A DNA stretch of 64,000 bases, taken from positions 6,945-70,944 of the forward strand of contig JANLHF010000039.1 of assembly GCA_024653825.1 (NCBI GenBank). The letters run 5' to 3'. This DNA is from Patescibacteria group bacterium. Lineage in GTDB: Bacteria; Patescibacteriota; Minisyncoccia; Phycocordibacterales; Phycocordibacteraceae. Below, in pieces: positions 1 to 60,608 of this stretch (the stretch's first letter is position 1; each line of letters starts with the position of its first letter). Made by a program: the position numbers and the translations under genes. The notes under the pieces were generated by a model. That model was not told where the DNA came from, made no database searches, and saw nothing but the letters and a program-made list of their open reading frames with translations.

Positions 1-1617
1 CCGCACCTGCGCTTTCTTGAGAATCAGGTAAAGAAGTTGGAACGCGCTGATGCGTTGCGCACCGATCTCGTCGGCCTCGCGCAGACCTACTTCGCCATTG
101 AGGACGCGTATCTCGCGCAGGAAAAAGAAAGAGTCATCGGAGAGAAACGCGATGCAGCAGAACGGCTTGCGGTAGCGAGCGCCGAGCTCGATCGCATCGC
201 AGATCCGAAGTCCGCAGACCACGAGACTGTGAAGCGCACTGAGGCTTTGCGGAAGGCGGAGCGGGAAGTGAGCGAACTTTCTGCAGAGCGCGCCACACTC
301 TCACGCGACATAGGACGACTGGAAGGCGCTCTGACCGAAGTGAAGCGTCGGGCCACTTCAGCGGCGCACGAGCCATATGCGAAGGTGTCGCGCGAGGAGC
401 TTGAAGCACTACACAGTGAGGTTGTACGACAGGCTGAAAACGCCGGAAACAGTAGCGAATCTCTGCGCGCTGCGCTTGATGCGATTAAGCGTACGATACA
501 ATTCTTTTTTTCTCGCTATGGCTCCCCCAGCGATGAGAAGTTTTCTGAAGAGGAAAATACGGCGTTTCGACTGGAACAGGAGCGTACCGCGCTTGCGGAG
601 AAATACACAACGGTTTCCGCTGATCTTGAGAGGGCAGAAACTTCGCGCGCGCGTGCGCGCGAGGCGATGGTTGCTCTTGAAGAGACCGGTCGCGATATTC
701 GCCGCCATATTCTGGACTTCGCACAGGCGAAGGCACATGAAGAAGGCGAGGTGGCAAAGTATGAAGCACGCGAATACGAGCTCGGTGTTCTTACTGAAGA
801 ACTTGAACGAGATAAAAGGGAAGTTCTCGCGATTGGTGGGACCGCCGCCCTCTCTTATGCATCGCTCTCACAACTGCCGAGCGAAGATCGCAAGACACAA
901 GAAGAGCGCCAGCGTATTCTGGAGCGCACAAAGATCCGTTTAGAAGAAGCAGGTGGGACAGGCGAAGAGCTTCGACAGGAGCATAAAGAGGTGTCTGAGC
1001 GAGAAGCATTCCTCGCCACCGAACTCGACGATCTCGCGAAATCAGCGGCGGGTCTGCGCGAACTCATCCACGATTTAGATACGGAATTACAGAAGCATTT
1101 CTCCGAAGGGCTCGCCAAGGTCAACGCTTCGTTCGGTGAATATTTTGCACTTATGTTCGGCGGTGGTGGCGCACGGCTCACGCTTGAAGAGCCTGATGAA
1201 CCGGACGAAGACGACCTTGAGTCTGAAGAAGAAATGGATGAATTGCCGAAGGAGAAAGAACGTCAGGGTATAGAAATAGCGGTGAATCTGCCGAAGAAGA
1301 AGGTGCGCTCGCTGATGCAACTCTCGGGCGGGGAGCGCGCGCTCACCTCTATCGCGCTCATATTCGCGATGAGTCAGGTGAATCCGCCACCATTTTTGAT
1401 ACTGGACGAGACTGATGCCGCGCTCGACGAGGCGAACAGCCGTCGCTATGGGGACATGATAGAAAACCTCGCGAAGAAGAGTCAGCTCATCGTCATCACC
1501 CACAACCGCGAGACCATGAGCCGCACCGGCATCCTCTACGGCGTCACGATGGGCGGCGACGGAGTCTCCAAATTATTGTCAGTAAAATTCGAAGAAGCAG
1601 TACAAGTAGCGAAGTAG
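1..1617 (+). CDS. smc: Chromosome segregation protein SMC, C-terminal part (5' end outside the window)
   Basis: The frame is open from position 1. The product is a coiled-coil region followed by the C-terminal ABC signature and Walker B region (LSGGERALTSIALIFAM...LILDETDAALDE). Confidence 0.85.
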   Translation, partial: PHLRFLENQVKKLERADALRTDLVGLAQTYFAIEDAYLAQEKERVIGEKRDAAERLAVASAELDRIADPKSADHETVKRTEALRKAEREVSELSAERATLSRDIGRLEGALTEVKRRATSAAHEPYAKVSREELEALHSEVVRQAENAGNSSESLRAALDAIKRTIQFFFSRYGSPSDEKFSEEENTAFRLEQERTALAEKYTTVSADLERAETSRARAREAMVALEETGRDIRRHILDFAQAKAHEEGEVAKYEAREYELGVLTEELERDKREVLAIGGTAALSYASLSQLPSEDRKTQEERQRILERTKIRLEEAGGTGEELRQEHKEVSEREAFLATELDDLAKSAAGLRELIHDLDTELQKHFSEGLAKVNASFGEYFALMFGGGGARLTLEEPDEPDEDDLESEEEMDELPKEKERQGIEIAVNLPKKKVRSLMQLSGGERALTSIALIFAMSQVNPPPFLILDETDAALDEANSRRYGDMIENLAKKSQLIVITHNRETMSRTGILYGVTMGGDGVSKLLSVKFEEAVQVAK

Positions 1618-2930: not shown

Positions 2931-4904
2931 TTATGCCGGCACGAAGTCGAGTTCTTTTTCTGGAATACGCGCGGCGGTTAATTTAACCCGGATAGGGTCG
3001 CCGAGTTGGAAGGCTTTATGTGTGCGCTTGCCGACGAGGCGGTAGTGCTTCTCGTCATATTCAAAATAGTCGTCGCCGACGAGCCTGATATTTATCATCC
3101 CATCGGCATGCGTGGTTTGCTCTTCTACATAGAGTCCGCGCTCGGTCACGCCGGAAATGACGGCGTCAAATTCCTCGCCGATGCGTGGCGCGAGGAACTC
3201 CACCTGCTTCATTTTGATAGAGTCGCGCTCGGCGTCCGAAGCGCCGACTTCGCGCTCGGAGGCATGGATAGCGAGCTTGTCGAATGACTGCATCTCATTT
3301 GGCGTGATAGGGTCGCCACCGCTATGCGCCTTAATCAATCTGTGGATAACGAGGTCGGGGTAGCGGCGGATTGGGGAAGTGAAGTGTGTATAAAAGTCGA
3401 AGGCGAGACCGAAGTGGCCGATATTCTTTGTTGTATAGATAGCCTTGCTCATCGAGCGAAGCGTCGCCATCTTCACAAGATACTCCTCCGGCTTCCCTTT
3501 CACCGATTCCATAAGTTTGTTCAATTCGGCACCGGTCACTTGCCCACTGCCGCTCGTCTTCAGATGATAGCCCATAACGCGGAGAAGATTAGCAAGGTTT
3601 TCAATGCGGTCTGTGTCCGGCTCGTCGTGAACGCGATAGAGCGACTGGAAGTGCGAGCCGCCCTTGCTCGAGAGTTTAGAAAGGTGTTTCGCGACTGCTT
3701 CGTTCGCGAGGAGCATAAAGTCTTCGATCATCAGCATCGTATCCTTGCGCTCTTTGAGATGTATGGCGATCGGCTTGCCTTCAGCATCGAGTTCGATCTT
3801 GACCTCTGCTGTGTCGAATTCGACTGCGCCCTTGGCCTGGCGGCGCACGCGTATTTTCTTGGAGAGCGCGAGCAGAGTAGAAAGTTCTTCATACATCGTG
3901 CCGCTTCCCGCATCGAGCACCTCCTGCGCATTTTCATACGTAAAGCGCTTGTCGGAGTGGATAACCGTCTCGCCGAACCATTCGCTGACGATGTTCGCGT
4001 CGCTATCGAGCGTGAAAACTGCCGAAACGGCGAGACGATCTTCGTCCGGCTTAAGAGAACACAAATCATTCGACAAAACTTCGGGGAGCATCGGGATGGT
4101 GCGATCAACGAGGTACACACTTGTTGCGCGCGCCACCGCTTCTTTATCAAGCTCCGTGCCGGGCGAAACAAAGAACGAAACGTCAGCGATGTGTACACCG
4201 ACTTCAATGTTCCCATCGGGCAATTTCTGCACTGAGAGAGCATCGTCAAAGTCTTTTGCATCAAAGGGGTCGATAGTGCAGGTAGGGACTTTTCTAAAAT
4301 CTCTACGCTTCGGACTCCTCGCTTCCTCTGCGAGTATCGCCGCACCGTTTTTTTCGAGCTTTTCGGCATCCGCAACGACACCGGGAGGGAAGTCGCTTGA
4401 GAATCCTTGACCGAGCGCGAGTGCACGCATCTCGGTCTCGTGCATGCCGGCCTTGCCGATGTCTTCTTCAATCGTGCCGAGCGGGTAATCCTTGTCTGCG
4501 GCCCACTCGCCGAGCCGTACGAGGACCTTGTCGCCAAGCTGGGCGTCGCCCCGGTCAAGAATGACAATCGGCACGTACATCTTCTTGTAGTCGGGGGCAA
4601 GGAGGGTGAGACCGTTTTCTTCAACCAATGTTCCCACAAACGTTTCTCGAGCTCTAGAAACGATTTCAACCACCTTGCCCGAGGCGCGTGGCGGCATCCG
4701 GCCCATCGGGTCGCTATACATGCCTGCTGGGGCGACTTTAACAATGTCGCCCGCGAGCGCGTGGTTTGCCCATTCCTTAGGTATGAGCAGGTCTTCTTCC
4801 TGCTTGCCCTTCGTAGCCTTGGCGGAGGAGGGCCCTTCCACAGAGAAAAAGCCGATGCCTTTTCGGGTCATCGTTATAGGACCTTCGTAAATTGCCTGCG
4901 CCAT
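2931..4904 (-). CDS. rnr: Ribonuclease R (RNB family exoribonuclease with a C-terminal S1 domain)
   Basis: The RNB motif (CTIDPFDAKDFDDALS) is present, with a cold-shock-like N-terminus and an S1 domain at the C-terminus. The start is placed at an internal Met (4904, or 4871) because the longer ORF overlaps rpsP on the opposite strand. Confidence 0.85.
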   Translation of the reverse strand: MAQAIYEGPITMTRKGIGFFSVEGPSSAKATKGKQEEDLLIPKEWANHALAGDIVKVAPAGMYSDPMGRMPPRASGKVVEIVSRARETFVGTLVEENGLTLLAPDYKKMYVPIVILDRGDAQLGDKVLVRLGEWAADKDYPLGTIEEDIGKAGMHETEMRALALGQGFSSDFPPGVVADAEKLEKNGAAILAEEARSPKRRDFRKVPTCTIDPFDAKDFDDALSVQKLPDGNIEVGVHIADVSFFVSPGTELDKEAVARATSVYLVDRTIPMLPEVLSNDLCSLKPDEDRLAVSAVFTLDSDANIVSEWFGETVIHSDKRFTYENAQEVLDAGSGTMYEELSTLLALSKKIRVRRQAKGAVEFDTAEVKIELDAEGKPIAIHLKERKDTMLMIEDFMLLANEAVAKHLSKLSSKGGSHFQSLYRVHDEPDTDRIENLANLLRVMGYHLKTSGSGQVTGAELNKLMESVKGKPEEYLVKMATLRSMSKAIYTTKNIGHFGLAFDFYTHFTSPIRRYPDLVIHRLIKAHSGGDPITPNEMQSFDKLAIHASEREVGASDAERDSIKMKQVEFLAPRIGEEFDAVISGVTERGLYVEEQTTHADGMINIRLVGDDYFEYDEKHYRLVGKRTHKAFQLGDPIRVKLTAARIPEKELDFVPA

Positions 4905-4940
4905 TTGCCCTACTGTAACACTTCTGCTATAGTCGCTCCA

Positions 4941-5414
4941 ATGTTGATGATTCGCTTTCAGCGCATCGGCCGGACCAATGATCCGGCATTTCGCATTGTC
5001 GTCCTTGAGAAAGAGCGCGCAGCGAAGGCCGGCAATATCGTCGAACTCCTTGGGACCTACAATCCGCGTAGCAAGGCGCTTACGCTCAATGAGGAACAGG
5101 TGAAGCATTGGATAAGTATGGGCGCTCAGCCGACCGATTCCATCCACAACCTCCTTATCAACAAGGGCATCATCCAGGGTAAGAAGATAAACGTGCTTCA
5201 GAAGCACACGCCGCAGAAGAATGAGGCTGCGATAGCCGCAGCCCCGACGCAAGAAGTCGGGGCGCCGACCGCAAGCGTCGGCGAAGTAATCGTGGAAGCC
5301 CCAATGCCGACCGAAGCCGAAGTCGCAGCAGAAGCTGAGCCGGCTCCGGAGGTAACCCCGGCACCCGAAGTTCCCGCAGAAGAAGAGAAGCCGGCAGAAA
5401 CTCCTGCCGCATAA
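4941..5414 (+). CDS. rpsP: 30S ribosomal protein S16 with a low-complexity Ala/Glu/Pro-rich C-terminal extension
   Basis: The N-terminus MLMIRFQRIGRTNDPAFRIVV...LGTYNP...WISMGAQPTD matches S16. The true start is an internal ATG at 4941 within the longer ORF 4407..5414. Confidence 0.85.
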   Translation: MLMIRFQRIGRTNDPAFRIVVLEKERAAKAGNIVELLGTYNPRSKALTLNEEQVKHWISMGAQPTDSIHNLLINKGIIQGKKINVLQKHTPQKNEAAIAAAPTQEVGAPTASVGEVIVEAPMPTEAEVAAEAEPAPEVTPAPEVPAEEEKPAETPAA

Positions 5415-22277: not shown

Positions 22278-23546
22278 CTATGAACCGGCGCGTACGCGCG
22301 CCGGTAGTTCCGAGACGGGCAGTCCGGCTTCTTCGCCGGTCGCGAGGATTTTCATGCGGACGGTGCCTTTTGCGACCTCGTCCGCGCCATAGGCGATGAA
22401 GAGGGGAATATCGCGCTTCACCGCGTCTTTGATCTGGTCGCCGAGTCCGCGAGTCGTGAGATTGACGAACACGCGCGATCCTTGCGCGCGGAGCGTATCG
22501 GCGAATGCTTGAGCAGCAGGGATGTCTCCCTCGGTCGGCGTGCCGAGATAGAGCTGTGGTTTCCCCTCGTTCCCGCTCGGAGCGAGTTGATGTGTTTCGA
22601 GAAAGTCGGCAAACGAGACATCCCCCATACCAAAGCCAATCGCAGGGACTGGGTCACCACCGAAGAGTGCCATTAATCCGTCATATCGCCCGCCGCCGAA
22701 GAGTGCGCGAGGGTTCGCGGGGTCGGTGTCGTACACCTCGAAGACTGTGCCGGTGTAATAGTCGAAGCCACGCGTGATGCCCACATCAAATACGATATTT
22801 TCGACGCCGCGCATTTTGAGTGTTTCGATGCGATCGAGGAGTTTCCGTTTCTCAAGAGCGACCTCTGGAGCTTCACTTGAATGTTCGATGAGCGAGAGAG
22901 GGTCCTTCGCAGCGATAGTTGCTGAGGCCGCGGCGAATGCTTCCGGGGCCATCTTCGCTTTTTTATCAAGAAGCCGAAGGTATTGACGGACCTGTTCGCC
23001 CTTGAGTCCGGCCGCTTCGCACGCAGCGTTTAGAAGGGCGCGTGAATTCATACGGATGACAAAGTCGCTCTCGGTGGCGCCAAACGCTTTTACTATCGCC
23101 GAGATGATTTGGATTGTTTCTATATCTGCTTCTCCCTCCGGAAGGCCGACAAGATCGACGTCAAGCTGATAGAACTCGCGCAGGCGACCCTTCTGCGGGC
23201 GTTCATAGCGGAAGCGGTTGCCGATAGAGAACCAGCGGAGCGGGAAGGCGAGCTCGCGGCGCTTATTCGCCACCATGCGTGCGAGGGTCGGAGTCATCTC
23301 CGGCCGGAGTGTTACGCGACGGTCTCCGCGGTCGGTGAAGGTGTAGGTTTGTTCGTTTACGATCTCTTCTGACGTTTTTGCCTCATATAATTCAGCGCGC
23401 TCCAAGGGGGAAGCGTTGTATTCTTCATAACCCCACTCCCGAAGCGTCTGTCGGATGCGCGCGAACATCACCTCCATCCTTACCCAGTCGGCAGGATAGA
23501 AGTCGCGAACGCCCTTATAGGATTCGGTTGAAAGCGTTTCAGACAT
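22278..23546 (-). CDS. hisS: Histidine--tRNA ligase
   Basis: The class II aaRS motifs RGFDYYTGTVFEV and GGGRYDGL are present, along with the anticodon-binding domain. Confidence 0.92.
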   Translation of the reverse strand: MSETLSTESYKGVRDFYPADWVRMEVMFARIRQTLREWGYEEYNASPLERAELYEAKTSEEIVNEQTYTFTDRGDRRVTLRPEMTPTLARMVANKRRELAFPLRWFSIGNRFRYERPQKGRLREFYQLDVDLVGLPEGEADIETIQIISAIVKAFGATESDFVIRMNSRALLNAACEAAGLKGEQVRQYLRLLDKKAKMAPEAFAAASATIAAKDPLSLIEHSSEAPEVALEKRKLLDRIETLKMRGVENIVFDVGITRGFDYYTGTVFEVYDTDPANPRALFGGGRYDGLMALFGGDPVPAIGFGMGDVSFADFLETHQLAPSGNEGKPQLYLGTPTEGDIPAAQAFADTLRAQGSRVFVNLTTRGLGDQIKDAVKRDIPLFIAYGADEVAKGTVRMKILATGEEAGLPVSELPARVRAGS

Positions 23547-23623
23547 AGAACGATTTTACCACGAGCAGCTTTTGAGTTATACTCGCCACCGGAATCGTCC
23601 ACCAACTCTTGGAGAGAGTCAAT

Positions 23624-23803
23624 ATGGAGCCGATATACAAACCGCCGTCTCCGCCAGCGAGAGTGGCAAGAAGATCCTTCAAACTCTGTAGCGAATGCTT
23701 CGCTTCGCTCGTTAAGATCAACAAGGGACATCCGCTGACGTGTTCGGTATCCTGTGAGCGTCAACGCCAGCGAAGGGAAAACGAGGATTTACTACGCACC
23801 TAA
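23624..23803 (+). CDS. Small basic zinc-ribbon protein (59 aa; CxxC...CxxxC)
   Basis: It has a GGAGAG SD-like sequence 7 nt upstream. The product is a cysteine pair-containing small ORF. Confidence 0.3.
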   Translation: MEPIYKPPSPPARVARRSFKLCSECFASLVKINKGHPLTCSVSCERQRQRRENEDLLRT

Positions 23804-23808
23804 CACGC

Positions 23809-23837
23809 TTGACAAACATTCTGTTGGGTACAATTAT
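23809..23837 (+). promoter_or_regulatory. Sigma-70-like promoter (perfect -35 TTGACA, 17-bp spacer, weak -10)
   Basis: The sequence is TTGACA-aacattctgttgggtac-AATTAT, upstream of a 31-codon ORF with an AAGGAG SD. Confidence 0.4.
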
Positions 23838-23867
23838 AGTACTTGGGTAACCAAGAAGGAGAATGTG

Positions 23868-23963
23868 ATGGATCCGCCGTTGATGAACTCTCTGCTGTTC
23901 CAGTCCCGGTCGTGCCTTGGGAGGCGCGCACACCAACCCCTTGGAGACGTCGGAAGGAGGTGA
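23868..23963 (+). CDS. 31-aa small ORF whose stop codon is embedded in GGAAGGAGGTGATCC
   Basis: An AAGGAG SD lies 6 nt upstream of the ATG. The ORF ends with TGA inside a 13-nt perfect complement of the 16S 3' tail. Confidence 0.3.
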   Translation: MDPPLMNSLLFQSRSCLGRRAHQPLGDVGRR

Positions 23964-24012
23964 TCCAGTCGCGGCGGGGCTAAACCCCCTGCCAACCTTG
24001 TTTCAGCAACAC

Positions 24013-24046
24013 AGAGGAGGGACATTGTTCCCTCCTTTTACTTTTC
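24013..24046 (+). terminator. Intrinsic terminator
   Basis: An aggaggga-cattgt-tccctcct hairpin is followed by TTTACTTTT. Confidence 0.5.
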
Positions 24047-24584
24047 AGAGCCCGTCGTTCTTCGATGGCTCTTCAGAAACGTATTTTAATATGAGGTCGC
24101 GCATTTGTTCCGGATGGGGAATGCCGCGCATAGTAAACTCAATTTCGGCGCCGGCGCTCTGGACCTTGATATTGCCGAGATTAAGAAGCGAAGAAACAAT
24201 CCCCGTCACATTGGTGGTCACGTCCTGCACGCGCGGTAAAAGGAGGCTTGATACTTCGCGAACGAAGAAACGGCGCTGTTTGATAGTCGCGATGCGCTGA
24301 TTGGTGAGGATCCATGCGTTGAGGAAATAGCGAGTGAAGGCGCCCCATGCGCTTGTCCAGGTGACGAGGAGCCACACGCCGAGCCCCGCGCGCCCGAGGA
24401 CCGTATGGTAGTCAAAGAGACTCGCGTACTTCGCAAGAGGCGGCACGAGTACCAAGAGTTTTGGGAGTGCGAAGGGGATAACCGCAAGGATAGCGAAGGG
24501 CAAGAGCTCTCCGAGGAAGAGGAACCAATGCTTACGTACCGTCTTCACAATATGTTCACCCGGACTTAGTTCAAATTCTTTCAT
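24045..24584 (-). CDS. Membrane-flanked bacterial PH-domain protein (YdbS/YdbT-like)
   Basis: Two N-terminal transmembrane helices are followed by a bPH_2-like domain. Confidence 0.6.
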   Translation of the reverse strand: MKEFELSPGEHIVKTVRKHWFLFLGELLPFAILAVIPFALPKLLVLVPPLAKYASLFDYHTVLGRAGLGVWLLVTWTSAWGAFTRYFLNAWILTNQRIATIKQRRFFVREVSSLLLPRVQDVTTNVTGIVSSLLNLGNIKVQSAGAEIEFTMRGIPHPEQMRDLILKYVSEEPSKNDGL

Positions 24585-24589
24585 ATAAT

Positions 24590-24877
24590 TTATGGCAGAT
24601 AGGAAGTGAAAAAGAAGGAGCTACCGGAGAGGGTATAAGAAATAAGCACGAACGATATGAGAAGGTGCACGGCCATCGCGGGGAAGGCGATCCACGACGC
24701 ATGAGAATATTTAAGCCAGTGATAGATAGCGACGAGCGTATAAATCGCCCAGAAGATGAAGACGGCGTAGAGCACCCACTCGACAGCAACGCCTAAGGAG
24801 CCCTTGAACTGGAACGGTAACCAATAATCAGAAACGAAATCAGGCGGAGAAAACGGCTGAAGCGGCTGGTCGAGCAT
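24590..24877 (-). CDS. Small hydrophobic membrane protein (95 aa)
   Basis: The ORF is hydrophobic with transmembrane-like segments and is coupled to its neighbours. Confidence 0.35.
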   Translation of the reverse strand: MLDQPLQPFSPPDFVSDYWLPFQFKGSLGVAVEWVLYAVFIFWAIYTLVAIYHWLKYSHASWIAFPAMAVHLLISFVLISYTLSGSSFFFTSYLP

Positions 24878-25671
24878 TACGTATAGGATACAACAATCAC
24901 ACGGGGCTTGCTGTACTGGTCAGTGCGTATCTCGGCCGTGAGGCCCTGTTCCACAAAAAGCGCGGCCGCAGCGGCCGCGTGTCCGCGGTCGCACTCGATC
25001 CACGCGACTCCGCCTTTGGCGAGATGCCTTGGGAGCGCGAGCGCGATGCGGCGGATATAATCGAGTCCGTCATCTCCGGCCATGAGTGCGAGAGAGGGTT
25101 CGTAGTCGGCGACGCTCGGCGGAAGCACATGGCTAGTGGGGACGTAGGGCGGGTTCGTAGCGATGACATCAAATTTCATATCCTCAAATGGTTCAAGGAG
25201 GTCGCCGATGCAAATGTGTGCGTGGCTCTCGTCCAGATTATTTTCTTGAATGTTTTTTAAAATAGTCGCCTTGTGTGCGGGATCGATCTCGCCGAAATAG
25301 ACTTGTGCATTGGGAATCTTCGCGAGCGCCGCACACCCGATGGCGCCGCTCCCTGCACATAAATCAAGGAATTTCAGTTGCTCGCCGGCAGGCCCAAAAG
25401 TGGGCGCGCTCCGGGCCGCTAGGCCAAGTCTTACCCCCACTTTTGGGCCTGCCGGTTCGCTTTTCAACAATTGCTCGGTCCACCACTCAGTCTCGGGGCG
25501 GGGGATGAGTGGCTTGGAATCTAGATAGATTTTCAGACCCAGAAAGGGTTGCCAGCCGATGACGTAGGCCAGCGGCTCGCCTCCGGCGAGCCGCTTCCTA
25601 TCTTCTTCAAAATGGGGGGTTCGTACCCCATCATATTTTTCTTCCAGAAGATGTTGTTCGTCTTTAGTCAT
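24877..25671 (-). CDS. prmC: Release factor glutamine methyltransferase PrmC/HemK
   Basis: It has the NPPY motif and an LDLCAGSGAIG SAM-binding site. It carries an in-frame 72-bp hairpin-element insertion. Confidence 0.85.
   Translation of the reverse strand: MTKDEQHLLEEKYDGVRTPHFEEDRKRLAGGEPLAYVIGWQPFLGLKIYLDSKPLIPRPETEWWTEQLLKSEPAGPKVGVRLGLAARSAPTFGPAGEQLKFLDLCAGSGAIGCAALAKIPNAQVYFGEIDPAHKATILKNIQENNLDESHAHICIGDLLEPFEDMKFDVIATNPPYVPTSHVLPPSVADYEPSLALMAGDDGLDYIRRIALALPRHLAKGGVAWIECDRGHAAAAAALFVEQGLTAEIRTDQYSKPRVIVVSYT
25384..25455. repeat. E2 hairpin element, copy 1, in-frame inside prmC: a 21-bp perfect inverted repeat around a 30-nt conserved core
   Basis: The sequence is gccggcaggcccaaaagtggg - CGCGCTCCGGGCCGCTAGGCCAAGTCTTAC - cccacttttgggcctgccgg. 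The core is shared with the copy at 63436..63466. Confidence 0.7.
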
Positions 25672-25742: not shown

Positions 25743-26117
25743 TTAATAGCCACCACGGCCATAACCGCCTTGGCCACCGTAGCCACCGCGATCACCACCG
25801 CCGAAACCGCCACCTCCGCCTTCACGGCGAGGAGGGCGATCACCCTGCGGGCGAGCAAAAGAAACGGAGAGCGTGCGCCCGTCCATCTCCTTGCCGTCCC
25901 ACTTGTCGATAGCCGCCTGAGCTTCCGCCTCGGTTGCCATCTCGACGAAGCCGAACCCGCGTGAGCGACCCGTCATACGATCAGAAATAATGCTCGCAGA
26001 AACGACATTGCCGGCCTCACCGAAGGCCTTCTTAAGATCGTCTTCTGTCGAGCGATAGGGGATACCACCCACGTAGAGCTTGTTTCCCTGAACTGAATCT
26101 GCTGATGCTGTGTCCAT
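25743..26117 (-). CDS. RRM-type RNA-binding protein with a Gly-rich C-terminal tail
   Basis: The RNP2/RNP1 motifs are KLYVGGIPY and RGFGFVEM. Confidence 0.85.
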   Translation of the reverse strand: MDTASADSVQGNKLYVGGIPYRSTEDDLKKAFGEAGNVVSASIISDRMTGRSRGFGFVEMATEAEAQAAIDKWDGKEMDGRTLSVSFARPQGDRPPRREGGGGGFGGGDRGGYGGQGGYGRGGY

Positions 26118-26409: not shown

Positions 26410-29400
26410 ATGAAAACGGCTTTGCGCGTTTCTTTGCCTGTATTTTTATCCATTCTCGCCTTCGGAGCCTCTGCTCCTCTCGCGTTTGCGGCAAACGAAC
26501 ATGTTGTGAATCTACAGATAGCTACCGTTCCGACACCGGATGCTGGGACCTCTGTAGCAGTTGACACGCCAATGGCTCTTGCGGTTCAGGCCTTTGACAG
26601 CGAAGGCGCTGCAACTAGCACAGATGGCACACTGGTGGTTGCTTTAACTGATGGGAACAACAACGGCGTGTTTACCACCGGTTCGACCGAAGGAGTCTGT
26701 AATGTAGATGTTTGGAACAACGCGACCAACGGGATAGTCACAAGTAAAACTCGAAAAGGCTTCTGCTACAAAAACTCCACCCCGGGCGCATATACGCTAA
26801 CCGCCACTGCGGGAGCACTCAGCACGACGTTTAACGTGACCGTTACCGGCGCAACAATCGTTGGTGGCAATACCTACCCCACAATTCAGGCGGCGATTAA
26901 CGCCGCTTCAACTACGGCACCAGACACAATTAACGTCGTGGCGGGGACGTATAACGAAAATCTAAATATAGATAGACCAGTAACACTCCAATCCGTTTCT
27001 GGTGCCGGTGCTACGACTATCTCAGGCGCAACAGGTATTGTGGTCACCATAAGCTCCAGTGATGTAACCGTGACTGGATTCACCATTACTAATGGAGGTG
27101 TACATGGTATAGGTATCTATTCTGCGGACAAAAGCAATCTGACAATCACGGACAACATCATTACAGGGATAGGTAATAGCAGTGCTGACGTGATGGGAAG
27201 AGGAGTTGTCATTGTCTCTTCGGCAAGTTCAATAGACGGCATAACTATCTCCAATAACCAGATAAACAACATCACTTCCGGCATGCGCACCGGTTCTGCC
27301 AGTGTCAGTGCATCCGGCGTCTCCGTCGGGTGGAGCACGGGAACGGAAGATATTACGAACCTTGTACTGGACGGGAATACCATATCCAACATTAGCGCGG
27401 ACACAAGTCCGTGGAACAGTCCAGGAACAAAAGGTCAGGGCGCTAACGGTATCATCATCAACCACGCCAGTGGCAAAAGTGGTAATACCGGTCGCACGGT
27501 TGCTCCTCAGATTACAAACAACAGCATCAGCAATCTAAGTGGGCTCTGGTCACACGCTATCGGTCTTGAAGGCAATACACCCGATACAGTCTTGAGCAAC
27601 AACACCATCAGCAACCTCTCCAGCACGAAAACACCGAGCGATGCCTTCGCAATCTTCTTTGAAGACAATGCGGGCAAGACCACGGTCTCAATTGACGGCG
27701 TTACTTACGACGCAACCACGACCGTTGCCGTTAATGCCGCATGGAACGGTTTGGGAGGTAATCCGCTCGTGTCGCTTAATGGCGAGTCGTACATCTTTGA
27801 TGTAAATGCATTCTCTACCATTCAAGAAGGCATTAATGCGGTCGCAGTAGGAGGTACGGTAAATGTTGTGGCAGGAACGTATGCCACGACAGGACAGGTT
27901 CTTATCGATAAGAATCTGAACATTGTTGGTGATGCTGCAAACAAGCCGACGATTAGTCCGGCGGCTGATTTCACTGCGACCAATAACGTCGCCGGGGCGT
28001 GGTTCTTGGTCAATGCGGGCGCGACATTCAACTTGAGCAACGTCGTTCTTGATGGCAATGGCAAGAAGTTACAGCAAGGTGTTCGATCACACGGCACGAC
28101 GTCAATTACTAACGTCGATTTCGCTAACATCATCAACAGCACGAGTCCGTATGTCGGGTTTGCAATCGCAAACTTTGGGGGAATGGTTCCCGGTGGAGCT
28201 GGGTCAGATACTCACAGCGCTGGCGGTGCGGCCAGTACGCTAACGGTGACGAACAGCACGTTTACTAACATCGGGCGCGTAGGAGTATTGACCAAGGGCA
28301 CTGGTTCGACCGTTACACTTACCGGGAATACCTACACAGGGAAAGGTGACGGCACATTCCTCGATTATGCTTTTGAGTTTGGTGCCGGAGGGTCTGGTAC
28401 TGCTAGTGGCAACACTATTAGCGACAACCGCGGTGTTGCTAGTGACACCTCAACCTCAGCCGGGATCTTGGTAACTGATTATTACGGAACAGGAACTTCA
28501 GCAACTATTGAGAACAACACGATAACCAACAATACAGATGGCATCGCGATTGGTTATGATGAGGCGGATAACAGCGTTGTCGTTGTTCATAGCAATGCAT
28601 TCGGCGGTAATGTGAATGCGATAAACACCACCCACCCGACTGTGAATGCCATCAACAACTGGTGGGGCAACTCGTCCGGTCCGACCGTTGCGTCTAATCC
28701 AACTGGAACGGGAGACACAATCGTTGAAGCAACACCAGGTACGGTCTCGTTCTTCCCGTGGTACATCAATCCGGGTATGACGATCCTCTCCGATGCAGTC
28801 AGTGACACTGGTGCGATAGATTCCTCCACGGACAACTTCGATGTGGCGGGTACGAATTCTGGGACGGCTGATATTCCGTCTGGAGTTACGAACATCACGC
28901 TAGGAGATAACACCGCACTCGACCTTTCAACCGGATTGAGCGGGGATACGGTTACGCTAAATTCCGGCACCACCGGCGAACCAGTTGTGTTGGCTAACTC
29001 AAACTCGAATGTCGCTGGTATCAGCGCAAGTATTCCTGACGGGACGACAATTACTGGTCCATCGGGATGGGACGGCAAAATAGCGCCTCCGGTCTCTGAT
29101 ACATCGGGCGGGGGAAGCACTCCGGCCGGGTTTAGTGTCGGCGGTACGGTTATCTCAATCGGTTCATCTGCCGGAACACTGACCTTCGATAAGGCGGTGA
29201 AAATTGTCCTGGCTGGTGTTACTGGGACAGTTGCTTACAAACCGGCCCTTTCTAACGACTGGACAACCATAACAACTCAATGTGCCGGTGCGGATGATCC
29301 AAGCAATATTTCTTCGGGCGAGTGTTACTTCACCGATGGGGCGAACACGAATATCTGGACTTATCACTTCACCGAGTTCGGCGGGATGACGCCGACGGCA

Positions 29401-30180
29401 CCGGTCATTACTCCGAGCGGTACGACCTTCCAGGGTTCAATTGATGTGGGGATTGGCCCGACGGTAGATGGTACGACCATTCGCTACACGACGAGTGGCG
29501 ACACTAGCGGTTCCGGTTCCACACCGACCTGCAGTTCCACAGAATACACCGGCGCTCTTACCTTCCACAGCCCGACCGTATTAAATGCGGTGCGTTGTGA
29601 TGGATCAAATAACGTCTCTCCAGTATCCACAGCAACGTTTATCCTCGTTGGTTCTGGTGGCGGTGGAGGTGGAGGTGGTGGAGGTGGTGGAGGTGGCAAC
29701 GTACCTGTTGTCCCAGCAACTCCCGCAACGCCTGCAACTCCGACCGTGACGTCAGCTACTCCCGCAACGCCTGCAACACCGGTGCAAGGACGTGTGCTCG
29801 GTGCAGCGACTTTCAACTTCGCCAACGACCTCCAGATGAACTCCTCGGGAACGGATGTGACCGAACTCCAGAAGAGTCTCATCGCCGAAGGGTTTGATAT
29901 CCCGGCAATAACGAAGGGAGGAGTGAACTACGGCTACTTCGGTGGCCAGACGCGCTCGGCAGTCGTTGCCTTCCAGAAGGCGCGCGGCATCTCGCCGGCG
30001 GTCGGCTACTTCGGCCCGCTCACGCGCGGTGAGCTCAACAAGGGCAGGGTGGTGTCGGCTGTAGCAGGAGGGAATACAAACCTCACGACCGAACAGGCAA
30101 ATGCGATACTCTCGATAATCGAGTCCTTCGGGGCCGATGCATCGGTTGTCGCAAACGTCAGAGCTTCTCTCGGTCTCTAA
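26410..30180 (+). CDS. Large secreted/cell-surface protein with right-handed beta-helix repeats, a poly-Gly and PATP-repeat linker, and a C-terminal peptidoglycan-binding domain
   Basis: It has a signal peptide (MKTALRVSLPVFLSILAFGASAPLAFA) and many NNxISN/ITNN beta-helix repeats. A G15 tract and PATPATP repeats are followed by a PG_binding_1-like C-terminus (YFGGQTRSAVVAFQKARGI). Confidence 0.8.
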   Translation: MKTALRVSLPVFLSILAFGASAPLAFAANEHVVNLQIATVPTPDAGTSVAVDTPMALAVQAFDSEGAATSTDGTLVVALTDGNNNGVFTTGSTEGVCNVDVWNNATNGIVTSKTRKGFCYKNSTPGAYTLTATAGALSTTFNVTVTGATIVGGNTYPTIQAAINAASTTAPDTINVVAGTYNENLNIDRPVTLQSVSGAGATTISGATGIVVTISSSDVTVTGFTITNGGVHGIGIYSADKSNLTITDNIITGIGNSSADVMGRGVVIVSSASSIDGITISNNQINNITSGMRTGSASVSASGVSVGWSTGTEDITNLVLDGNTISNISADTSPWNSPGTKGQGANGIIINHASGKSGNTGRTVAPQITNNSISNLSGLWSHAIGLEGNTPDTVLSNNTISNLSSTKTPSDAFAIFFEDNAGKTTVSIDGVTYDATTTVAVNAAWNGLGGNPLVSLNGESYIFDVNAFSTIQEGINAVAVGGTVNVVAGTYATTGQVLIDKNLNIVGDAANKPTISPAADFTATNNVAGAWFLVNAGATFNLSNVVLDGNGKKLQQGVRSHGTTSITNVDFANIINSTSPYVGFAIANFGGMVPGGAGSDTHSAGGAASTLTVTNSTFTNIGRVGVLTKGTGSTVTLTGNTYTGKGDGTFLDYAFEFGAGGSGTASGNTISDNRGVASDTSTSAGILVTDYYGTGTSATIENNTITNNTDGIAIGYDEADNSVVVVHSNAFGGNVNAINTTHPTVNAINNWWGNSSGPTVASNPTGTGDTIVEATPGTVSFFPWYINPGMTILSDAVSDTGAIDSSTDNFDVAGTNSGTADIPSGVTNITLGDNTALDLSTGLSGDTVTLNSGTTGEPVVLANSNSNVAGISASIPDGTTITGPSGWDGKIAPPVSDTSGGGSTPAGFSVGGTVISIGSSAGTLTFDKAVKIVLAGVTGTVAYKPALSNDWTTITTQCAGADDPSNISSGECYFTDGANTNIWTYHFTEFGGMTPTAPVITPSGTTFQGSIDVGIGPTVDGTTIRYTTSGDTSGSGSTPTCSSTEYTGALTFHSPTVLNAVRCDGSNNVSPVSTATFILVGSGGGGGGGGGGGGGGNVPVVPATPATPATPTVTSATPATPATPVQGRVLGAATFNFANDLQMNSSGTDVTELQKSLIAEGFDIPAITKGGVNYGYFGGQTRSAVVAFQKARGISPAVGYFGPLTRGELNKGRVVSAVAGGNTNLTTEQANAILSIIESFGADASVVANVRASLGL
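29656..29697 (+). repeat. Simple sequence repeat (GGT/GGA/GGC)n encoding poly-Gly
   Basis: This is a GGTGGCGGTGGAGGTGGAGGTGGTGGAGGTGGTGGAGGTGGC run inside the surface-protein gene. Confidence 0.8.
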
Positions 30181-60536: not shown

Positions 60537-60608
60537 CTCCGGGAGCAGGACTCGAACCTGCAACCAACGCCTTAACAGGGCGCTGCTCTACCATTGAGCT
60601 ATCCCGGA
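60537..60608 (-). tRNA. tRNA-Asn (anticodon GUU); no encoded CCA
   Basis: A cloverleaf was folded manually. The acceptor stem is TCCGGGA/TCCCGGA, the D-arm is GCTCAATGGTAGAGC, the anticodon loop is CUGUUAA and the T-arm is GCAGGTTCGAGTCCTGC. Confidence 0.85.

Follow-up and report, generated by a model that had tools for sequence, protein, structure and literature searches.

The stretch of DNA described here, 64,000 nucleotides in length and referred to as the window, belongs to contig JANLHF010000039.1 of a Patescibacteria group bacterium (GenBank assembly GCA_024653825.1). The subject is a short unit on its plus strand, located between hisS (22278-23546, minus strand) and a gene encoding a bPH_2-domain protein (24045-24584, minus strand; hereafter bPH) and thus on the strand opposite to both. 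At its center is an orphan super-Shine-Dalgarno motif, GGAAGGAGGTGATCC (23952-23966), which is the complement of the canonical 3' tail of bacterial 16S rRNA (GGAUCACCUCCUUUC). The designation anti-16S presumes such a canonical tail; the organism's own tail is not among the sequences examined, and no 16S gene was found in the window or in any related locus examined. The closest relatives of the hisS and bPH genes were found in metagenome-assembled genomes of the Kaiserbacteria/Paceibacterota type from the candidate phyla radiation (CPR), with identities of the histidyl-tRNA synthetase (HisRS) of up to 82%. Judged from these genes, the window is from a CPR bacterium, Kaiserbacteria-like.

Transcription of the unit is predicted to start at about 23844 from a sigma-70-type promoter (23809-23837), which consists of the -35 box TTGACA (23809-23814), a 17-nt spacer and the -10 box AATTAT (23832-23837). 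With a score of 10 out of 12 it is the top promoter-like site within 23000-25000. The ribosome-binding site AAGGAG (23856-23861) is located 6 nt before the ATG (23868-23870) of a 31-codon open reading frame (ORF; 23868-23963; translation MDPPLMNSLLFQSRSCLGRRAHQPLGDVGRR*), the stop codon of which, TGA (23961-23963), lies within the motif. By sequence and translation, the region from AAGGAG and ATG through the ORF to the TGA (23856-23963) makes up the variable 5' part of the unit. Immediately 3' of the motif is a hairpin, P1 (23973-23993; GGCGGGG CTAAAC CCCCTGCC), which is followed by the linker AACCTTGTTTCAGCAACAC (23994-24012), holding the sequence ACCTTGT, and by an intrinsic terminator (24013-24046) of the form AGAGGAGGGA-CATTGT-TCCCTCCTTT and then TACTTTT, with the stem at 24013-24038 and the T-run reaching to 24046. 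The terminator adjoins the stop codon (24045-24047) of the convergent bPH gene. On the plus strand no gene follows the unit, which is compact from promoter to terminator. The original prediction had described the promoter, the ribosome-binding site, the ORF with its stop codon inside a 13-nt exact complement of the canonical 16S tail, the terminator and the lack of a downstream gene; all of these are present, with coordinates corrected by 1-2 nt.

Complementarity to the 16S tail and its conservation

Within the window the exact 13-mer AAGGAGGTGATCC is found at a single place, 23954-23966; its chance expectation is about 0.002 in 128 kb of strand by simple arithmetic (a chance figure of 1.42 reported by the search concerns matches with up to two mismatches, not the exact 13-mer). 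The match extends as GGTGATCCAGTCGC, which agrees with the common bacterial ...GCGGCUGGAUCACC if one G.U pair is allowed; resemblance to the reverse-complemented bacterial 16S 3' end goes on as ...CCAGTCGC. Duplex energies for all loci were computed against the canonical tail GGAUCACCUCCUUUCU. For the window motif a duplex of 15 bp with -29.4 kcal/mol is predicted, compared with a median of -5.9, a 1% quantile of -14.8 and a minimum of -20.7 kcal/mol for random 26-mers of the window (5000 draws). The complementarity goes beyond that of any gene Shine-Dalgarno sequence (SD) in the window, the strongest of which reach -12.7 to -15.9 kcal/mol with a longest contiguous complement of 9 nt.

Related loci (designated by numbers with the prefix L) containing both bPH and hisS numbered 60. 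The two genes are adjacent and co-directional in 41 of them, with a gap below 120 nt and often of 9-60 nt; the remaining 19 carry an insert on the opposite strand between the two genes, and the element of the window lies in such an insert. The family of the element was gathered by a motif search of related loci followed by an energy scan. Besides the window it comprises 19 distinct loci: L001, L003, L006, L009, L016, L034, L083, L088, L089, L094, L098, L102, L109, L111, L133, L137, L138, L142 and L151. Its consensus, R-R-A-A-G-G-R-G-G-T-G-A-Y-C, is found on the strand opposite bPH, 60-150 nt past the bPH stop codon, and in a k-mer census this SD-like motif was the sole block common to all 20 members. 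In 19 of the 20 loci the motif is predicted to form 12-16 contiguous pairs with the tail at -20.5 to -30.5 kcal/mol, the exception being L006 (-14.7 kcal/mol). On both strands of 840 kb of related sequence, 23 sites reach -22.9 kcal/mol or less; the element accounts for 19 of these. The motif exceeds chance, because its duplex energy is far below that of random 26-mers and because it recurs at the syntenic position in 19 other loci.

Variants of the motif are of two kinds, A-to-G changes (GGGGG in L009, L089, L094, L098 and L151) and insertions of a G (GGGAGG in L001, L016, L102, L133, L137 and L138). Both still pair with CCUCCUUU via G.U, which fits RNA-RNA pairing of the plus strand with the tail and is the opposite of what an anti-SD mimic on the minus strand would tolerate. 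A degenerate copy, AAAGGAATCG, is present in L141. In the window itself, the RBS and start region of the ORF (23856-23875; AAGGAGAATGTGATGGATCC) resembles a disrupted copy of the motif. MAFFT places the motif of L111 opposite this segment, equally far from the shared promoter, and the window may thus contain a degenerate first and a perfect second copy, 96 nt apart. L006 has a second strong anti-16S match (ACAGGAGGTGATCC, 826-836, plus strand, -26 kcal/mol) located 2.2 kb from the element, on the bPH strand and inside an apparent coding sequence of the other strand.

Promoter and terminator are conserved on the plus strand. A TTGACA(AA) -35 box with a plausible -10 box is located upstream of the element in most members; TTGACA is absent within 480 nt in L006, L016 and L088, of which L006 and L088 share a TATACT/TATAAT -10 box. 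The AATTAT of the window is also found in L102, and the spacer of L111 is similar (GGGTAC). Every member has a GC-rich hairpin with a T-run adjoining the bPH stop codon. In the window the terminator arms are SD-like (AGAGGAGGGA) and anti-SD-like (UCCCUCCUUU), and the super-SD upstream is a potential competitor for the 3' arm; this arrangement is not conserved in the relatives. P1 is always located between motif and terminator and differs in sequence by subtype: GGCAGGG/CCCCGCC in the subtype of the window, with GACAGGG/CCCTGTC in L083; TCGCC/GGCGA in a second subtype; CGGGG/CCCCG (CGGGC/GCCCG in L137) and CTGTCG/CGACAG (L151) in further ones. Homologs of the window's hairpin are present in L034, L083, L089 and L094; in L083 a G-C pair is replaced by A-T, a compensatory change. 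A MAFFT alignment of all subtypes misaligned P1; hairpins were compared by direct reading, and no covariance model was built. Many members have a second hairpin, P2, with a UUUCGCUACCG block that occurs in 7-8 members. When the whole intergenic region of the window was used in a blastn search, relatives matched only 23948-24002, i.e., motif and P1. The linker sequence ACCTTGT recurs in L089 and L094, and in the predicted minimum-energy fold of the window (z-score -1.36) its ACCUU can pair with GAGGU of the motif. An internal anti-SD partner was considered on account of this ACCUU and of ACCUCC (P2 loop of L111), CCUCC (P1 loop of L088) and AUCACC (loop of L083), each of them suggestive by itself, and was rejected because its position is not conserved.

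The ORFs at the motif differ among the members. Seven of the 20 have an ORF that stops at the UGA of the motif; in five of these (the window, L142, L094, L009 and L003) it is short, with 14-31 codons, and unrelated between members, and in the other two (L083 and L089) it is a Zn-ribbon gene of 67-76 aa. The stop codon lies 0-8 nt upstream of the motif in six further members (L001, L133, L137, L138, L006 and L088), and the ORF of L016 ends 20 nt upstream. In L034, L098 and L109 a different frame runs through the motif, giving K-E/G-V-I-Q. The three others (L102, L111 and L151) have no ORF; their promoter is located 13-35 nt upstream of the motif, which comes near the 5' end of a predicted transcript of about 110 nt. 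The distance from the predicted transcription start to the motif is 6-28 nt in these three, about 110 nt in the window and up to about 290 nt in the Zn-ribbon members. The Zn-ribbon ORFs are real genes with conserved Cys/His positions and homologs in the protein database; they also occur without the motif (L020, L022 and L141). In L034 (minus strand of the locus) two AAGGAGGTGAT copies, at 2868-2878 and 2796-2806 and thus 72 nt apart, both lie within one 80-aa Zn-ribbon ORF, where they are read as K-E-V-I.

Since the motif is read in varying frames or not translated at all, its nucleotide sequence is selected independently of the reading frame. On this comparison the recurrent feature is that something translated ends at the motif, not a peptide. 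No ATG, GTG or TTG is found 3-14 nt after the motif core in 19 of the 20 members, whereas about 44% of members would be expected to have a downstream start by chance (simple arithmetic; the loci are not independent). Hence the motif is not the RBS of a hidden downstream ORF, a reading that was tried and rejected on this ground, and initiation after the motif seems to be avoided. A conserved antisense ORF was likewise looked for among the members and rejected, as frames and lengths vary. A public gene call of 79 aa with a TTG start in L142 and L143 (2063-2302, minus strand of the locus) crosses the motif in the K-E-V-I frame and is probably a spurious annotation.

A possible docking site for non-initiating ribosomes

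Any role for the motif has to be seen against the use of SDs in this lineage. SD 5-mers at positions -17 to -5 were found in 12 of 54 window genes (long ORFs) against a background of 4.7%, and the SDs seen in the window include AAAGGAG, GAAAGGAG, AGAAAGGAG and AAGGAGGT. The ORFs of the cassettes examined have a GGAG-type SD 5-10 nt before the start (well formed in the window, L142, L094 and L009), except for the 14-codon ORF of L003, the SD of which is poorly spaced (3 nt). The enrichment, the SDs seen and the SD-led cassette ORFs favor a functional canonical tail in the lineage. Boxes of the -10-like type TANNNT at positions -16 to -5 were found at 15 of 54 putative starts of the window, against a background of 5.5%. 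In the related loci the top upstream hexamers are -10-like (TAAAAT, TATACT, TACAAT and GTGATA) and the positional SD peak is weak. This suggests that leaderless genes are widespread and SD use minor in this CPR lineage. The hisS gene looks leaderless as well, because a conserved extended -10 box is located 5-8 nt before its ATG (23546) and no SD is present; the box reads TGGTAAAAT in the window (23547-23600, minus strand) and TGATAAAAT or CGTGATAAAATCG in relatives (L001, L034, L083 and others). In insert-free relatives the bPH stop codon overlaps this hisS -10 box (TCTGATATAC).

As far as the comparison of sequences goes, the selected feature is an RNA element and not the 31-aa peptide. The best reading of it would be a docking site like a STAB-SD (stabilizing SD) and/or a decoy for the anti-SD. 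More specifically, it is proposed, tentatively and at somewhat less than an even chance, that the motif is a docking site where 30S subunits, or ribosomes fresh from termination, bind without initiating, and that it acts as a STAB-SD-like stabilizer in cis. The purine-rich stretch of 12-16 nt would pair with nearly the whole single-stranded 3' tail of the 16S rRNA, either in a free 30S subunit or in a ribosome that has just terminated on the short upstream ORF, the stop codon of which lies in the motif or at most about 20 nt before it in 14 of the 20 loci. Once paired via the anti-SD, the ribosome would stay parked, with nothing to initiate on. The likeliest effect would be one in cis, in which the docked subunit protects the short RNA lying 3' (P1, the terminator and, in members that have it, P2) and sets its 5' boundary, as a STAB-SD does against 5'-exonucleolytic decay in Bacillus. 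The ORF would be disposable in sequence and would often serve to deliver a terminating ribosome onto the motif. Such docking would explain why the motif forms the boundary between a variable, degradable 5' part and a terminator-proximal tail, why the reading frame is irrelevant, and why the motif is located beside the transcription start in members without an ORF. It takes for granted that the RNA is made, that 30S subunits bind it, that the 16S tail is canonical (including ...CACCUCCUU) and that binding has the effect described, all of which we infer. Of the options named in the original prediction, that of a ribosome-sequestering RNA or small RNA (sRNA) fits, given an anti-16S stretch conserved in about 20 loci and 7 of 20 ORFs that stop at the UGA of the motif. 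Of the effects of such docking, the best documented is that RNA 3' of the site is protected from decay by 5' exonucleases. The STAB-SD was reportedly described in the cryIIIA leader by Agaisse and Lereclus in 1996. Ribosomes at a strong SD block RNase J1 on the hbs mRNA of B. subtilis (PMC5737220).

Several observations weigh against the docking site as a stabilizer. No RNase J was found among the 25 window proteins scanned, in a scan that was not exhaustive. The protected tail would be less conserved than its protector, and in the window, from which P2 is absent, it would consist of P1 and the terminator only. That the sequence 3' of the motif is poorly conserved would be strange for a mere protector of a functional RNA body, and favors an alternative in which engaging the 16S tail is itself the function. 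Predicted folds are no more stable than those of shuffled sequences (z-scores from +1.6 to -3.4, mostly about -1), and the motif is neither predicted to be unusually accessible nor provided with a consistent intramolecular partner across the members; a thermodynamically special structure was rejected for these reasons. The element is also dispensable, the insert being absent from 41 of the 60 related loci. SD use is a minority mode, with -10-like boxes upstream of starts more enriched, and the anti-SD CCTCCT was present in just 48% of the 16S genes of Parcubacteria (Tsurumaki et al. 2022, PMC9297842).

The alternative favored by the weakly conserved tail is a regulator of ribosomes that acts in trans. 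The RNA would occupy the anti-SD tail of the 30S subunit as a sponge or as an agent similar to RMF, and would thereby lower SD-led relative to leaderless initiation or cap the 16S 3' end against exonucleases of the RNase R type. This is regarded as unlikely, although no part of the transcript is better conserved than the motif, which in the window is almost the sole conserved one, and the pairing spans the whole 16-nt tail, far past the needs of initiation. The strong promoter, the avoidance of start codons after the motif, the apparently leaderless state of many genes including the neighboring hisS, and an RNB-family exonuclease gene in the window (2931-5252) would also fit. CPR cells are said to hold only tens of ribosomes (a finding ascribed to Luef et al., 2015), and an sRNA could equal so few ribosomes in number. 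What speaks against such a regulator is its patchy distribution, since a global regulator would be expected to be retained and 41 of 60 loci have no insert, as well as the frequent prediction that the motif is paired within its own transcript; moreover, we know of no bacterial sRNA that acts in this way. Still more doubtful is the specific version in which the sRNA pairs with the whole 16S 3' tail in trans and parks or caps the few dozen 30S subunits of an ultra-small CPR cell. It would then be an RNA counterpart of RMF or bS21 that shifts translation from SD-led to leaderless or protects idle subunits from 3' exonucleases, and would be loaded preferentially by ribosomes terminating on the throw-away ORF that ends inside the motif. 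The layout of promoter, seed near the 5' end, hairpins and terminator would equally suit a conventional sRNA with the motif as seed for RNAs containing CACCUCC-like stretches, for instance to free a masked SD (anti-antisense), and the UUUCGCUACCG block could be another seed. This is quite improbable: at up to two mismatches no other site on either strand of the 64-kb window complements the 13-mer, and the complementarity follows the 16S tail well past the CCUCC core. A function of the minus strand was considered highly improbable and rejected. A bPH read-through RNA would contain ...hairpin-GGAUCACCUCCUUCC. Resembling the 16S 3' end, this could act as a decoy for anti-SD-binding factors or toxins, or even be a separately encoded 16S tail. 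The minus strand of 23952-24002 indeed reads ACAAGGUU-hairpin-GGAUCACCUCCUU, resembling 16S positions 1500-1542, the terminator lacks a U-run on that strand so that read-through from bPH is possible, and some Parcubacteria have 16S genes without a detectable anti-SD (PMC9297842). Against it stand the promoter and T-run terminators on the plus strand of all members, and motif variants which on the minus strand become CCCCC or CCCUCC and would break pairing with GGAGG SDs, including those of the cassette ORFs themselves. ACCTTGT is limited to three members, the hairpin loop is not the GGAA loop of h45, the element is missing from most relatives, and Rfam gives no small-subunit rRNA match.

The remaining alternatives place the function, past or present, in translation. 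The coding readings offered by the original prediction (a small protein of 31 aa, a leader peptide that stalls ribosomes, or a programmed frameshift where an SD abuts a stop codon) are very improbable; on sequence grounds they can be regarded as largely refuted. The ORF of the window has a good RBS (AAGGAG, 6 nt, ATG) and is probably translated. The closest relative with the module, L142 (bPH protein 84% identical), also has an SD-led ORF of 31 codons, ending GGA AGG AGG TGA (GRR*), and L098 and L109 share an indel-free ORF of 31 codons. Tandem AGG-AGG codons are shift-prone sites in E. coli. The peptide, however, had no tblastn match at the syntenic position in 138 related loci and no Pfam match. 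From ATG to motif the ORFs of the window and L142 are 26% identical in DNA, which is the shuffle expectation, and the differences between L098 and L109 are spread over the codon positions as 7/8/11, with 6 synonymous against 11 non-synonymous codon changes and thus no coding signature. The proposed comparison of peptide with nucleotide conservation therefore had a clear outcome: the nucleotide motif is kept and the peptide is not. A leader peptide of the attenuator type requires a regulated gene on the same strand and a conserved peptide or conserved codons; the element has neither, as the peptides are unrelated, three members lack an ORF and no downstream gene is there to be regulated, which excludes a stalling leader in control of such a gene. 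The frameshift reading recalls prfB (RF2), where a strong SD-like sequence directly upstream of an in-frame UGA promotes a +1 shift. In prfB this depends on CUU_U and a 3-nt spacing between SD and P-site; the window gene is not prfB, has no CUU_U and has a spacing of 0 nt, so that in GGA AGG AGG UGA an AGG codon occupies the P site and the SD extends over both this and the E site. There is also no conserved extension in an alternative frame: the frame over the motif varies, frames past the motif stop at very different distances among the members, and the open +1 frame of the window continues through the terminator into the bPH gene, to which it is antisense. A 3' translational enhancer or recycling site, which would capture 30S subunits at the end of a short mRNA and return them to its own start, possibly helped by pairing of the 5' and 3' untranslated regions (UTRs), is improbable. 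It would account for the ORF stop in or beside the motif in most members. In L001, L133, L137 and L138 a GGGUAGCCGA sequence right after the -10 box complements the UUCGCUACCG block (3' part, P2 loop) over 6-8 nt and could join the two ends; a 5'/3'-UTR interaction is known for the hbs mRNA of B. subtilis (PMC5737220). The three members without an ORF and the Zn-ribbon cassettes without a motif (L020, L022 and L141) argue against the enhancer, and the end-to-end pairing was rejected because it is invariant within this one subtype, hence without covariation, and absent from the others. Little probability is likewise given to a relic, the SD of a lost downstream cistron that was translationally coupled and is now kept by descent without function. 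An SD overlapping the stop codon of the preceding gene is the usual geometry of coupling, and the element is dispensable in most relatives and degenerate in L141. A mere relic should not have kept 12-16 nt in loci where the flanking bPH protein is only 57-85% identical and the surrounding non-coding sequence has diverged past alignment; its length is far above that of functional SDs of the same genome, and start codons after it are depleted rather than left over.

Relation to known systems

The docking site that is preferred here resembles the STAB-SD (Bacillus cryIIIA leader; RNase J1 protection of the hbs, aprE and ermC type) in that an SD-like 16S complement which does not start translation is located at or near the 5' boundary of the surviving RNA and acts by binding a 30S subunit or ribosome, the last of these being proposed for the element. 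The two differ in the length of the complement (12-16 nt in the element and about 9 nt in the STAB-SD), in position (mostly at the stop codon or 3' end of a small ORF as opposed to the 5' leader) and in what lies downstream (a non-coding tail of 60-130 nt as opposed to an mRNA). The element belongs to a CPR lineage, the STAB-SD to Bacillus. Complementarity to the 16S rRNA, with a canonical tail assumed, and the lack of a start codon are shared by the element, and a position near the predicted 5' end is found in three members only. It may thus work like a STAB-SD but cannot be filed as one.

A further similarity is to systems that do not rely on SD pairing by default and in which proteins control how available the 16S tail is. 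The anti-SD is occluded by RMF in Gammaproteobacteria and by bS21/bS18/bS6 in Bacteroidia, with SD-dependent autoregulation of rpsU (PMC7797042, PMC13000453). The occluders RMF and bS21 are proteins, whereas the candidate ligand here would be an RNA. In Parcubacteria bS21 is often absent (Tsurumaki et al. 2022, PMC9297842). With 3'-UTR-derived sRNAs and termination-reinitiation SDs the element has in common the shared terminator of a small upstream gene and an SD that overlaps the end of the preceding ORF; a promoter of its own directly upstream is present in three members, and a restart codon is missing.

The element is probably an orphan, non-initiating SD and an uncatalogued RNA site with about 20 members. 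Rfam 15 gave no covariance-model match at the element in the window, the only hit at gathering score being a tRNA (60537-60608, minus strand), and nothing appeared at the element up to E values of 5-10 in the window region or in eight related loci. The nearest similarity was to RF01867 (CC2171), an expressed alphaproteobacterial sRNA, the consensus of which starts GAAAGGAGGUGAUCCAGU and shares 17 identical bases with the window (GAAGGAGGUGAUCCAGU). The match scores 16.3 bits against a gathering score of 75 and covers only the 5' 26 positions and a short hairpin of the 159-nt model; phylum and gene context differ. A T-box or other known hisS leader was rejected, as there is no Rfam match and the element is on the strand opposite hisS.

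Unusual features for an orphan SD are the length of 12-16 nt, the position at the stop codon or 3' end of small ORFs and the occurrence in a CPR lineage with low SD use. CPR bacteria (Patescibacteria) have reduced ribosomes and very few of them per cell. SD/anti-SD usage is weak or absent in at least part of the Parcubacteria (PMC9297842). The element bears on what the anti-SD is used for in lineages poor in SDs and ribosomes, and on whether RNAs, besides proteins, can engage it without initiating. Left uncatalogued, it risks being mis-annotated as assorted spurious ORFs, small or long. Conservation at the level of the family is solid; everything past the comparison of sequences is put forward here in conditional terms.

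Further features of the locus

Two more candidates were tried on the element. A CsrA site (GUACAAG compared with RUACARGGAUGU) was rejected because the GGA is missing. In L003 (2230-2260, minus strand of the locus) the motif has the form GGUGAUGA; together with a CUGA 17 nt further on it makes a pair similar to box C/D, and GUGAUG can pair with a downstream CAUCAC; a box C/D or k-turn was rejected because this is found in L003 only.

The junction between bPH and hisS (window 23547-24044) is a variable hot spot across L001-L152. Other inserts found there on the opposite strand are Zn-ribbon ORFs, a purH-like fragment (L021) and other ORFs (L024, L048 and L049). The two ends of filled sites carry similar A/T-rich sequences, CGTGATAAAAT on the hisS side and GCGTATAAAAA on the bPH side, whereas empty sites have a single one, GCGTCTGATATAC. 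The paired ends resemble a target-site duplication but may be no more than the -10 box and the tail of the terminator. A palindrome or recombination site in the DNA was rejected, as the motif lies inside the insert and GAGGTGATCACCTC is limited to L001, with L138 having a near-palindrome.

Between hisS and the TTGACA promoter, the window contains on the plus strand a Cys-rich ORF of 59 aa (23624-23803; CxxC...H...CxxxC) with the SD GGAGAGAG. A word-based protein search gave no homolog of the 59-aa protein; a homolog at the same place in L111 was recognized in a pairwise comparison (E 6e-4), and shows a weak match to DUF2116, a treble clef. Because no terminator is located between the two, the element may double as the 3' UTR of this ORF. 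The wider neighborhood in the window includes, on the minus strand, the RNB-family exoribonuclease gene mentioned above, which is RNase R/II-like, and a gene for an RRM_1 RNA-binding protein (25743-26117), and on the plus strand a gene for a 1256-aa beta-helix/peptidoglycan-binding protein (26410-30180).

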